Of a DNA stretch of 64,000 nt, positions 32,960-60,506 are shown one piece after another. Position 1 is the first letter of the stretch. Each line of letters starts with the position of its first letter. The notes below the pieces were generated by a model. That model saw only the letters and a list, made by a program, of their open reading frames with translations. It made no database searches and was not told the DNA's origin. The stretch is taken from the IMG/VR virus record IMGVR_UViG_3300028591_000078, positions 160,001-224,000 of that record; one strand, written 5' to 3'. Source of the stretch: a virus (taxonomy: Duplodnaviria; Caudoviricetes). The translations under genes and the position numbers were made by a program.

Positions 32960-33065
32960 TTTATCAACTCCTTTCATGACCACTATTATAATATATAATT
33001 GAAATCTTCTAGAGTTGCAAAAGACGTCCATGGCTATATTAGCCATGGACAATATATTGTATGTC

Positions 33066-52669: not shown

Positions 52670-52926
52670 GCTTTTATTCCTCCTCTTCTTTCAATCACAT
52701 CAGTTGAGATAGCTAATGCATCAGAAAGCATCTGAATAGCAGTAGCTTTTTCCTCTGCCGAAATATTAGGATTTGCAAGCATTGCTGATGCTTGCTGCGT
52801 CATCATACTAGCTTGTACTAAGTTAGGATCTACAGGCGATGAGTACTGGTGTATTCCAGTACACTTTGGGTCTCCGCAACTACAGATATTGCCTCTTGTT
52901 GCGCATGTCATCATTTCAGGAATCAT
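52666..52926 (-). CDS. small hypothetical protein with Cys cluster
   Basis: Start re-assigned to MIPEMM after GAGGAGG; CSCGDPKC; early motif upstream. Confidence 0.6.
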   Translation of the reverse strand: MIPEMMTCATRGNICSCGDPKCTGIHQYSSPVDPNLVQASMMTQQASAMLANPNISAEEKATAIQMLSDALAISTDVIERRGGIKA

Positions 52927-53004
52927 ATATGAATTCCTCCTTTCTATTACACTATAATAGTATATATCTGAATTTATTTTAAATATCATAATAAACACTT
53001 GAAT

Positions 53005-53390
53005 AATGAGTCTAAAAGATTTATTTGGAAGTGATTCCAAATCCATAAAACGGTTGTTGTCTTATAAAACAATAAGCAGTAAGAACGATTAAGGAAAAGG
53101 TTGACTGCTGTAATCTGTATAAAAGTTTCTACGATATGGATAGTTTAAATTCTGCAACATTTTGAAGACCAAAGAGAGATTTTATCTTACATATCTAAAT
53201 TCACGTTGTACAGGCAACTTCTTAATCAAGACCAAAACAACTATCACTTGGGTTGTGGTCCATAAAAACAAAGCGACAATATTCAATAACCGATAACTCA
53301 ATCAAATCAATATATTGTATTTCGGTAATCTTTTAAACTCATTACGTTATCTAAGAGTCTCCAGTAGCATCATAGCTACTGGAGATTTCT
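53005..53390 (+). ncRNA. candidate large structured ncRNA (~340 nt plus terminator)
   Basis: Late promoter at 52994-53005, terminal stem 53004-53021/53327-53344, several nested G-U-containing stems, terminator at 53358-53385, no substantial ORF. Confidence 0.6.
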
Positions 53391-53504
53391 TCTATGATAC
53401 CAAGGTTATATTTGACAAATGGTTAAACTTTATAATGAGTATATATTATTGAGATGAAGAGAAGCAGTGCTTCTCTATCTTAAATATTCAAAGGAGGATT
53501 TACT

Positions 53505-53900
53505 ATGAGTAAATCACCATATAAGATGTCAGTGCTCTTATTAGAGCACGTACTTGAGGCTGTTAAGTCTGATTTACTGATTGTGTGTGGATCATACAAA
53601 GCAGTTGTAGACGTTTTCATTCCTGAAAACGACAGAGAAGAAATATTTCTGATAGTAGATGACATCGATAGTGAAGATGTAATGACTACTGGAGAAATGG
53701 TCAATAAACTTAAGACCATTAAATCTGACTACAGTGTATCACTCGCAAAAGAGAACCCTGATGATAAGGGCGAACTCTATAAACTCTGTGACCTTGCTCA
53801 GACCATTATGCTTCTTGAGGGAACAGATAAAGATGATAAACCTGTAATACGTGTAGGCCTTATGGCAATGCCGAATCATAATGGAGGATTAAAGATATGA
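53505..53900 (+). CDS. hypothetical protein
   Basis: AGGAGG RBS; early motif at 53440. Confidence 0.7.
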   Translation: MSKSPYKMSVLLLEHVLEAVKSDLLIVCGSYKAVVDVFIPENDREEIFLIVDDIDSEDVMTTGEMVNKLKTIKSDYSVSLAKENPDDKGELYKLCDLAQTIMLLEGTDKDDKPVIRVGLMAMPNHNGGLKI

Positions 53901-57862: not shown

Positions 57863-60506
57863 GTGTCTAGGAAGACAGACATAACAAATACAACACTAGA
57901 GGAAGAGATAAAAAATTATGGAAACTCTATAGTTTCTATAGATGACCCTGTCCAAGCAGTGCGTCAAATAGCAGATGTCTATATTGGGGCACTTGGAAAC
58001 CCCGCCTTTTTGACTATGACTAGAGAGATCATTCAGAACTCATTTGATGAAGATATGAAAGGTTTTTCTAGTAGTAGAAACGTTTATGTATGGTTTGATG
58101 AACGTGATCTGAGAGTTACTGTCCAAGATTCTGGTCGAGGAATTCCTGAAGGAATGATCGATACATTATTTGGAAAACTTCACTCGTCCTCAAATTATAA
58201 TAAAAAGCCAGGTGAGTATTCTGCAGGTAAGAATGGTCAAGGTGGTAGCTTAGTTAATATGCTGTCACATACATTTACTGTAGATACATTTGTTCTTGGG
58301 AAAGGAAGACATGCTGAGTTTATTGAAGGACATATGTGGAAGAAGGGAGAAGTTCCTATTCCTAATTCTGAAGGTAAACAAGGTACAATTATAAGCTTCG
58401 TACCTAACCAGGATGTTATAGGTCAGTTGACTATAACTTGGTTAGATGTATATAAACTTATAGAAGTCATTATGCCTGCAACCAGAATAGGTCTGAATAT
58501 ATTTATGGAGTTCATTGATAAGAATGGTAAACTTCATAAAGAATCTTTGACTAATACTGATGGTATAATGCATCACTTGTATAATATGACTCAGTCTCCT
58601 CTCATTAAGCCAATCTTAATGAGCGCTGATACTGGATATTTCAAGGCAGATATAGCATTGACTTATGATAGTACAATGACTTTTACAGATGAAGAAATTA
58701 TAGGATTATGTAATACATGTCCTACTGTAGGAGGATCTCATATAGAAGGTCTTCTTAATGGTGTATGTAACTTCTTCCGTAAGTATATGAATAATATATT
58801 CCTTGCTGGACAGAAGTCTAAGAAACCTCTCACTGTAATGAATTCTGATATAAAGGCTGGACTCAAAGCAAGTATATCAGCATTCTGTCTTAAAGCGTCT
58901 TATACAGGTCAGTCAAAAGAAGTTCTCTATGTTCCTGAAATGGTGCCTTTCGTATCAGGATTGGTTACTAAAGAACTTGATAACTGGGCTAAGACTAATC
59001 CGAACGACTTAAAGAAACTCTGTCAGTATTTCAAAGATATTGCAGAGGTTAGAAGTAAGTCTGAAGAAGGTAGAGTAAAACTCTCTACTAAGTATGCTAC
59101 TAGTGTAATTGGTGGATTACCTAAGAAGTATGTAAAACCGAATGGTAAAAAGAATCTTGAACTCTTTATAGTTGAGGGAGATTCAGCTCTTGGTCCTGCC
59201 AGATTAGGTAGAGATCCTGAGAGGCAAGGTATATTCCCTATAAGAGGAAAAATATCTAATGCTATAACAACTCCAAGAGATAAGTTCTTACAGAATGAAG
59301 AAGTAAGTGCTATTCTTAATATCTTGGATGCTGGATATGGTAGATCTTTTGATATCAATAAATGTAAGTTTGAAAAGGTAGTAATGATGTGTGATGCAGA
59401 CCCTAGACCGTTGGGGCTTCGGGGAGCGATCCTCGTTGAAAAATCTCTTTAACTGCTGGAAGTGTCTAATGCTTGATTGACTACAACATAGCTTGAAAAG
59501 GCAAGTGTGAATGTGACGAAAGTCGGAAAGAACTAATCAAGATAGTATATGAGGATAGTAACTCTAAGTACTTTATAATGTACTGATCAGCAGCCAAGAT
59601 CCGCTAAGGATAAGGTTCAACGACTAGTTGAAAAACGTAGGGCCGAAAGGTTCGAAATGGGAGACATCTCTATGAGATGATGATATAGTCTAACCAACAA
59701 TGTTGGACGGCAATCACATTAGATCATTACTTCTCCGCTTATTCTTGCTTTATTGTGAACCATTAGTAGCCTCTGGAAGATTATATGGAGCAGTTCCGCC
59801 TCTGTATAATATGACTAAGAATGGTAAGAATGTATACTTCACTGATATGAAGGACTACATCGATTATGTACAGAAAGAGTTCATGAAGAACAATGTAATC
59901 TGTGATGTAAATGGAAAGCAGTTACCTTATGCACAGCTTTCTAGAGTACTCAGAGATAATATGTATTATGTAGAAACTCTGGAGAATACTGCAACAACCT
60001 TTGCAATAGATCCTGTTCTCTTAGAGATCGTCCTTATTAATAAGGATATGCCTTTCAATAAGTTTAAAGCTTATATTGAAAAGCTCTATAGATTTGTAAC
60101 TGTATCTAAGAATGGTAATACAGTTATCATATCTGGTATAGTAAATGGTCTTATGGATAATATCTTCCTTGATGATCGTTTACTTAGTTTCTGTGGATCT
60201 ATACTGCAGGCTATCAAACATTCGCCAAACTACTTTATTATGAATGGGCAGATGGTTTCTTTGTATGGATTGCTTAAAGCATTTGATACTACAAAGCCTC
60301 CTCATATAGAACGTAATAAAGGTCTTGGTGAGATGGACCCTGACCAGTTATCAGAATCAACCCTGTACCCTGGATCTAATAGAACTCTGATTAGATATAC
60401 TGTAGAGAATATCAAGAAAGAGATCGAACAGATTAGATTCATTGATGGTAACAGATCCGAACTTCTGAAGGACGTAAAAGTTACTAAGGAAGATGTGCTT
60501 GGATAA
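57863..60506 (+). CDS. gyrB: type II topoisomerase GyrB/ParE-like subunit, spliced: join(57863..59404,59706..60506)
   Basis: EIIQNSFDE, DSGRGIP, VEGDSA, PIRGK and KGLGEM motifs; splicing restores DADP|DGNHI. Confidence 0.9.
59405..59705 (+). mobile_element. group I self-splicing intron (301 nt, no homing endonuclease)
   Basis: 5' exon ends in U and intron ends in G; P aactgctggaa (59451), Q atcagcag (59586), R gttcaacgacta (59615), S atgatatagtc (59680); IGS ccgttgggg pairs with both exons. Confidence 0.9.

Follow-up and report, generated by a model that had tools for sequence, protein, structure and literature searches.

A candidate gene for a late, structured non-coding RNA at a strand switch in the genome of an uncultured rumen jumbo phage

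The locus between two divergent operons

The DNA considered here derives from an uncultured jumbo phage of the rumen, represented by a 238,365-bp IMG/VR record with 35% G+C, of which bases 160001-224000 were analysed as one stretch of 64,000 nucleotides (the window, to whose numbering all positions refer unless the genome is named). The nearest relatives of its GyrB-like protein, at ~28% identity, are those of AR9-group jumbo phages such as Staphylococcus phage S6 and Yersinia phage phiR1-37, and the multisubunit RNA polymerase of its own that characterizes phages with AR9-type late transcription units is encoded in the phage genome in the form of split β and β′ fragments (PF00562, 52 bits; PF00623, 49 bits). 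ARAGORN detected no tRNA or tmRNA gene, neither in the window nor in the whole genome. A group I intron (Rfam RF00028, 62 bits) is present at 59394-59706, where it interrupts a GyrB/topoisomerase II-like gene, the two parts of which lie at 57863-59452 and 59700-60506; the phiR1-37 homologue of this gene is also interrupted. Outside the window, two blocks free of ORFs (genome 126854-129413, 2.6 kb, and 81687-83574, 1.9 kb) are built of units with a 35-nt period, and two further gaps of 440-520 nt (genome 136603-137043 and 66780-67296) hold no SD-preceded ORF; neither the blocks nor the gaps have a match in Rfam.

The RNA locus is situated in a 576-bp gap (52930-53505) at the strand switch between two divergent operons. 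To the left, an 87-aa gene followed by a 698-aa gene is encoded on the minus strand, and to the right, a 131-aa gene on the plus strand is the head of the opposite operon. Between two outward-facing early promoters are arranged, in this order, a late promoter motif (52994-53005), a folded domain (53004-53344) and a terminator (53355-53393). Both early-type promoters are context and not part of the RNA. The left one, TATATACTAT-N6-G on the minus strand (52950-52966), is one of the 47 genome matches to TATATA[T/C]TAT, lies 30 nt before its first gene and serves the 87-aa and 698-aa genes, and the right one, TATATATTAT-N6-G on the plus strand (53440-53456), belongs to the 131-aa operon, is located downstream of the terminator and shows no change in any of the variants described below. 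Across these variants, hardly any change is seen in either early promoter, in the ribosome-binding sites or in the terminator. When eighteen neighbouring proteins were compared with Pfam and PHROGs, no match was obtained except for the GyrB-like gene and a DHH-domain protein further right, and a search of the ESM Atlas with the 698-aa protein gave none; from these three sources, no function of the flanking proteins and no binding partner for the RNA is indicated. A further perfect 8-bp hairpin, GAGAAGCA-N-TGCTTCTC (53459-53475), is located in the 5′ UTR of the 131-aa gene, past the early-type start at G53456; its centre base is G, T, A or C depending on the lineage, the rest of this UTR being invariant across variants.

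In AR9, early promoters conform to the consensus AAATATATATTAT-(6N)-G, and late promoters, read by the non-virion RNA polymerase, to AACA-(6N)-TA/G (PMC5312081). The early-type motif TATATA[T/C]TAT occurs in the genome of the rumen phage in 47 copies, mostly followed by N6 and G and often embedded in a longer common context. A subset of these 47 promoters shares a much longer, near-identical context, aaagatttcaat-TATATATTAT-aatagtga-, with copies at 32997 of the window (minus strand) and at genome positions 9729, 18871, 46009, 66847, 76654, 112650, 157124 and 233018; several of them are hundreds of bases away from any ORF of at least 70 aa and may drive small early genes or early RNAs.

The late-type motif AACA-N6-T[A/G] is 2.8-fold denser in intergenic than in coding DNA of the phage genome, and 43 copies are found 12-60 nt before genes, with an extended preference for AACAT..A[G/A]TAA. 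At the RNA locus, AACA-N6-TA (AACACTTGAATA) stands on the plus strand at 52994-53005, directly upstream of the folded domain, with the predicted transcription start at the last base of the motif, A53005, the position at which AR9-type late units begin. Its sequence AACACTTGAATAA resembles copies located 17-27 nt before genes (AACACTTCAGTAA, AACACTTTAGTAA and AACACTTAATTAA), and it is identical in four of the five variants, the fifth, L005, having one extra spacer base (N7 spacing). The copy is below consensus, as it falls among the lowest ~12% of the 43 well-placed copies and the top ~7% of the other copies. A first-pass annotation of the stretch, made from the sequence without database searches, had given the RNA a late promoter of its own: the motif type proves to be real by its intergenic enrichment and its position before genes, and this particular copy, sub-consensus and with altered spacing in L005, is a plausible prediction. 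The terminator proposed in the same annotation had a correct core (53358-53385). It is an intrinsic terminator on the plus strand (53355-53393), in which a stem of 14 bp carries a 6-nt loop and is followed by a U-rich tail, and G-U pairs extend the stem to 53355-53388; the stem is kept in all variants, and a T-rich tail follows the hairpin on the plus strand only.

Architecture of the RNA and its upkeep among variants

Variants of the locus were fetched through close protein homologues of three flanking genes and the contigs that carry them. Five distinct forms of the RNA were obtained from rumen and gut metagenomes: the form of the window, L002 (identical to L003, L004, L007 and L012), L013 (identical to L014 and L015), L006 and L005, which is the most distant with 68% identity and to which the partial L009 is close. 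Apart from three invariant islands, the body of the RNA is the fastest-evolving stretch of the neighbourhood, with 65-68% identity as compared with 80-93% for the neighbours. The distribution of the RNA is confined to one narrow phage clade. No similar DNA was found in the phage collection or among cultured phages, and a sequence look-up across the other genomes scanned found no look-alike; scans of IMG/VR and JGI with the flanking proteins, the invariant downstream anchor and three invariant 16-24-mers gave chance matches only and no relatives. A covariance model (R1), built on the arm 53087-53227, rejected all of 130 IMG/VR loci picked by invariant 16-mers as well as two 20-mer matches, which were due to chance, and among AR9, S6, phiR1-37, a faecal phage contig and the phage's own genome it recognized only the RNA locus itself. 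Likewise, nhmmer, blastn and R1 found no paralogue in the own genome.

All helices listed in the first-pass annotation were recovered at their positions, both in the minimum free energy (MFE) structure and in the consensus of the alignment. The domain is closed by P1, the strands of which (53004-53020 and 53328-53344) enclose 341 nt; the previously estimated length of ~340 nt thus holds for the domain, the full predicted transcript up to the terminator being ~388 nt. The terminal stem, annotated with 18 bp, comprises 17 positions including one C·A mismatch, and the 18th pair, 53021/53327, is only possible. Sixteen pairs of P1 are kept in all five variants, one of them with a U-A to U-G change, and the mismatch is conserved as C·A or A·C. 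P2, a peripheral hairpin (53025-53030 with 53035-53040) with a GUGA tetraloop of the GNRA type, is present in four variants and deleted in L005. In P3, strands ~230 nt apart are joined (53051-53059 with 53284-53292), enclosing P4, a 141-nt arm and a variable hairpin; three of its pairs are changed on both sides and two on one side, and 100% of its cells are paired. For the 5′ strand of P3 (53054-53059), an alternative local partner exists in CAGUAA (53077-53082), formed with wobble pairs in four variants, and fully Watson-Crick with 10 bp in L005, where it displaces P3 in the MFE structure, which suggests a folding intermediate or a switch.

The P4 hairpin (53060-53084, with 53060-53063 pairing to 53081-53084) shows one double change from C-G to U-A. 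Its loop contains the invariant AGCAGU (53075-53080), which in each of the five variants is complementary to ACUGCU (53104-53109) in a bulge of the arm, one U-A pair having become U-G; both segments are invariant islands amid variable surroundings, and to judge from their complementarity, a loop-to-bulge pseudoknot probably ties P4 to the arm. The long conserved arm P5-P9 itself (53087-53227, 141 nt) consists of P5 (53087-53094), an AAAA bulge (53095-53098) flanked by G-U pairs, P6 (53099-53103), which like P5 pairs within 53215-53227 and has one double change, a 10-nt bulge, P7 (53114-53122 with 53206-53214) with three double-changed pairs, a 10/10 internal loop, P8 (53133-53138 with 53190-53195), P9 and a 23-nt apical loop (53154-53176). 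Although the RNA as a whole drops to 68% identity, the segment 53139-53189 is near-invariant, and since such an invariant core is devoid of covariation, the fold of P9 and of the apical loop is a prediction. The arm is followed by a variable hairpin with linker (53228-53283), a gacca/ggtc hairpin of which the 5′ arm is replaced in each lineage and UUGUGGUC is invariant; a clear hairpin is re-formed in the window, L013 and L005, and a weak one in L002 and L006. Adjoining P1, the weak 5-bp hairpin P11 (53313-53327), with 92% of its cells paired and no double change, is uncertain. All these elements are read on the plus strand.

Thermodynamic stability is of little help at this locus. With the terminator included, the z-score of the MFE is -6.8, and when it is left off, -3.8; for 82 random 341-nt windows of the genome, which were taken from either strand and likewise fold far more stably than dinucleotide-shuffled versions of themselves, the mean z is -2.25 (sd 1.84, minimum -7.6). 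The whole genome is thus unusually hairpin-prone, z-scores alone are unfit for calling RNAs in it, and the stability of the domain, which by itself does not exceed this background, cannot carry the claim of an RNA; the z-score was consequently dropped as evidence.

The comparison of variants is more telling. In alignment A4, the alifold consensus comprises 93 pairs, with 99.1% of 454 cells paired, and eight pairs have changed on both sides (three in P3, one in P4, one in P6 and three in P7), as compared with none in every slid control, where ~40% of the cells were paired, and 2.4 +/- 1.2 in shuffles. All double changes trace to one lineage, L005; independent alternations between G-C, G-U and A-U occur in L002, L006 and L013 (53056/53287, 53053/53290, 53134/53194 and 53114/53214). 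As alifold itself seeks covariation, two fairer tests were run. The same pipeline applied to 347-column windows of the flanking genes usually gave 0-3 double changes, with a maximum of 6, and always more broken pairs. Between the window and L005, the structure conservation index (SCI) reached 0.65 on the plus strand at 65% identity and 0.45 on the minus strand; that of coding windows was 0.57-0.69 at 80-83% identity and 0.72-0.94 at ~90%. In an additional out-of-sample test, L005 was kept out of the structure prediction, for which only the four close variants were used, and was then scored against the predicted pairs, with random placement of the same 69 substitutions as the null. L005 showed 6 double-compensated, 6 single wobble-compatible and 6 broken pairs as compared with 1.7, 6.5 and 22 under the null, at least 6 double changes having P = 0.0015 and 6 or fewer broken pairs occurring in 0 of 2000 runs.

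The strand is given by the wobble pairs, as the first-pass annotation had argued. The consensus contains 42 G-U cells that on the minus strand would read A·C; 99.1% of the cells are paired on the plus strand and 90.1% on the minus strand, and the alifold energy (-52.9 against -42.1) favours the plus strand by ~10 kcal/mol.

No ORF of at least 25 codons preceded by an SD-like motif is present on either strand of the RNA region. The 28-codon leaderless ORF at 53006, the translation of which had been named as a possible cause of the conservation, does not explain it, since in L005 it has only 15 codons and ends differently; a 44-codon ORF starting with TTG at 53162 loses its start in L002, and a 27-codon ORF on the minus strand (53172-53089) has no SD motif and accumulates mostly amino-acid-altering changes. 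An ORF conserved in length and frame and equipped with a ribosome-binding site, as a gene for a small protein would require, is therefore not found in the region.

Neither does the RNA belong to a known family. In agreement with the annotation, which had found no hallmarks of tRNA, tmRNA, RNase P or group I introns, ARAGORN identified no gene and Rfam gave no match in 52800-53600 even at E <= 10, beyond noise driven by the terminator, nor in the RNA region of the variants L005 and L006; the gathering threshold of Rfam 15 was not reached for any family, among them group I and II introns, RNase P, tmRNA, 6S RNA, Y RNA, pRNA, ROOL, GOLLD, HEARO, OLE, T-box and riboswitches. Compensatory changes, a high SCI at low identity, no conserved ORF and no match by Rfam or ARAGORN together bear out the reading as a structured non-coding RNA on the plus strand. 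Two resemblances were considered and discarded: GGA motifs of the CsrA type are not enriched (4 copies as compared with ~4 expected, counted by eye), and a short-motif resemblance to the TIGR repeats of the genome found no significant similarity with nhmmer and blastn.

A probable stand-alone late RNA and the alternatives to it

The locus is probably a stand-alone gene on the plus strand for a structured non-coding RNA, presumably a late one, and that it constitutes an independent transcription unit is likely. The multisubunit RNA polymerase of the phage itself would most likely initiate at A53005, using an AR9-type late promoter, and stop at the hairpin terminator near 53390, with a product of ~388 nt. 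The 341-nt domain is closed by P1 with its 17 bp, and within it a junction that bears P4, the 141-nt arm (P5-P9) and the variable hairpin would be organized by the long-range helix P3.

The alternative closest to this arrangement is that of a long structured 5′ leader: the 131-aa operon would be transcribed from the late promoter at 52994, with the domain and the terminator as a conditional attenuator or antiterminator allowing read-through in late infection. [quoted passage not shown] Against it, genes elsewhere in the phage genome that possess both promoter types have them within ~100 nt of the gene, whereas here the late motif lies 499 nt upstream of the 131-aa gene with a strong terminator in between, a distance and an order which fit a separate transcription unit better than a leader. 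Between P1 and the terminator there is a 13-nt linker, and only the shared GAGUCU (4-5 bp) could compete with the perfect 14-bp terminator stem, so that the exclusive pairing expected of an attenuator is not found; in addition, no riboswitch or T-box of Rfam matches. A leader is hence an unlikely explanation. Slightly more improbable is that the segment between the divergent early promoters is a spacer without function, with a fold that is a by-product of AT-rich, hairpin-prone sequence and an apparent covariation due to chance. That the segment evolves faster than its neighbours (65-68% as compared with 80-93% identity), that random windows of the genome already average a z-score of -2.25 and that alifold yields 0-6 double changes in coding controls, with only five variants at hand, is what a spacer would predict; it would not predict the 6 broken pairs of L005 where 22 are expected, nor its excess of double changes, nor an excess of the SCI that is specific to one strand, nor the invariance of a ~50-nt core, of the AGCAGU and CUGCU islands and of the terminator within a fast-evolving stretch.

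The position at a strand switch between divergent operons, the AT-richness and the many inverted repeats would suit an element acting at the level of DNA, such as a replication origin, a packaging signal or a cruciform, in which the inverted repeats themselves are conserved. Pairing of DNA does not favour G-U over A·C, however, and ~15 pair positions are of the G-U type as compared with 2 of the A·C type; the helices bridge as much as 230-340 nt, and the GC skew displays only the strand switch and no signal of a replication origin, which makes such an element highly improbable. Even less credible is that one or more small proteins are encoded by the 28-codon, the 44-codon or the minus-strand 27-codon ORF: these ORFs are present in the window, and an AUG is found at +2 of the predicted start, but none of the three has an SD-like motif and each is shortened, deprived of its start or altered in its amino acids among the variants as described above.

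As for the function of the proposed stand-alone late RNA, targets of antisense pairing were looked for within the phage itself. When the conserved core was compared with 218 translation start regions of the phage, the best duplex had -23.6 kcal/mol, no outlier in view of -23.7 to -28.6 for shuffled cores, which, as far as these phage regions are concerned, argues for another mode of action. Closing and long-range helices that are compensated, a periphery that is lost or replaced, and an arm with invariant unpaired segments are what would be expected if the RNA offered a constant surface for a partner to contact. We tentatively propose a stable trans-acting scaffold or decoy RNA, made late, to which a protein or other macromolecule would bind through the invariant apical arm and A-rich bulge, with P1, P2 and the variable hairpin serving only to hold the fold and to protect the ends. 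A broader view, in which this RNA would be one case of an unrecognized habit of AR9-like jumbo phages to equip RNA-protein machines with late RNAs that are encoded on their own and intricately folded, has a low probability. By analogy, such a machine may take part in the handling of the virion-packaged RNA polymerase, the switching off of the flanking early promoters or the assembly of the particle in the manner of phi29 pRNA, and the alternation of P3 with the local hairpin, with AGCAGU freed for the pseudoknot, may be a built-in conformational switch.

Few structured RNAs of such a size are encoded by phages, and a function is known for hardly any of them. With ~340 nt and clear boundaries, this RNA is small enough for chemical probing and cryo-EM, natural variants already mark its important helices, and the invariant core of ~50 nt points to a predicted binding surface. 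Should the predicted late transcription hold, the late programme of AR9-type phages with RNA polymerases of their own would gain an RNA component. Its value is limited by the narrow distribution and the uncultured host.

Relation to known phage RNAs and late transcription units

A survey of IMG/VR reported candidate structured RNAs of 29-151 nt (PMC10690425), a size range in which the present RNA would not appear as a whole. Among the large RNAs of phages and prophages, GOLLD (RF02032) and ROOL (RF03087) have been termed 'ornate' (PMC12286853). Like these, the RNA described here is a stand-alone, multi-branched phage RNA without coding potential, and ROOL is also known from the rumen. It differs from both in size, ~340-390 nt as opposed to roughly 580-800 nt, in its helices, which no covariance model of theirs matches at E <= 10, and in its surroundings, as GOLLD and ROOL are frequently neighboured by tRNAs and the present phage genome has no tRNA genes; in size, helices and tRNA context alike it thus falls outside these families.

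With the late units of AR9, the locus has in common the type of promoter motif with the start at its last base, in a genome with split β/β′ RNA polymerase and an AR9-like early consensus. Units described for AR9, however, are protein-coding or antisense (PMC5312081), and with model R1, no homologue of the RNA was found in AR9, S6 or phiR1-37.

The packaging RNA of phage phi29 (pRNA, ~174 nt), as a trans-acting structured phage RNA that works in a protein machine, exemplifies the kind of role which, by analogy, may be assumed by the RNA described here. The latter is twice the size, has another architecture and no Rfam match, and is unrelated to any packaging gene. The phi29 pRNA is made from an early promoter. 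Judged by its sequence, the RNA of the rumen phage is a new family among the orphan structured phage RNAs, to which GOLLD, ROOL and phi29 pRNA belong, distinct from each of them by the very features that define their membership.
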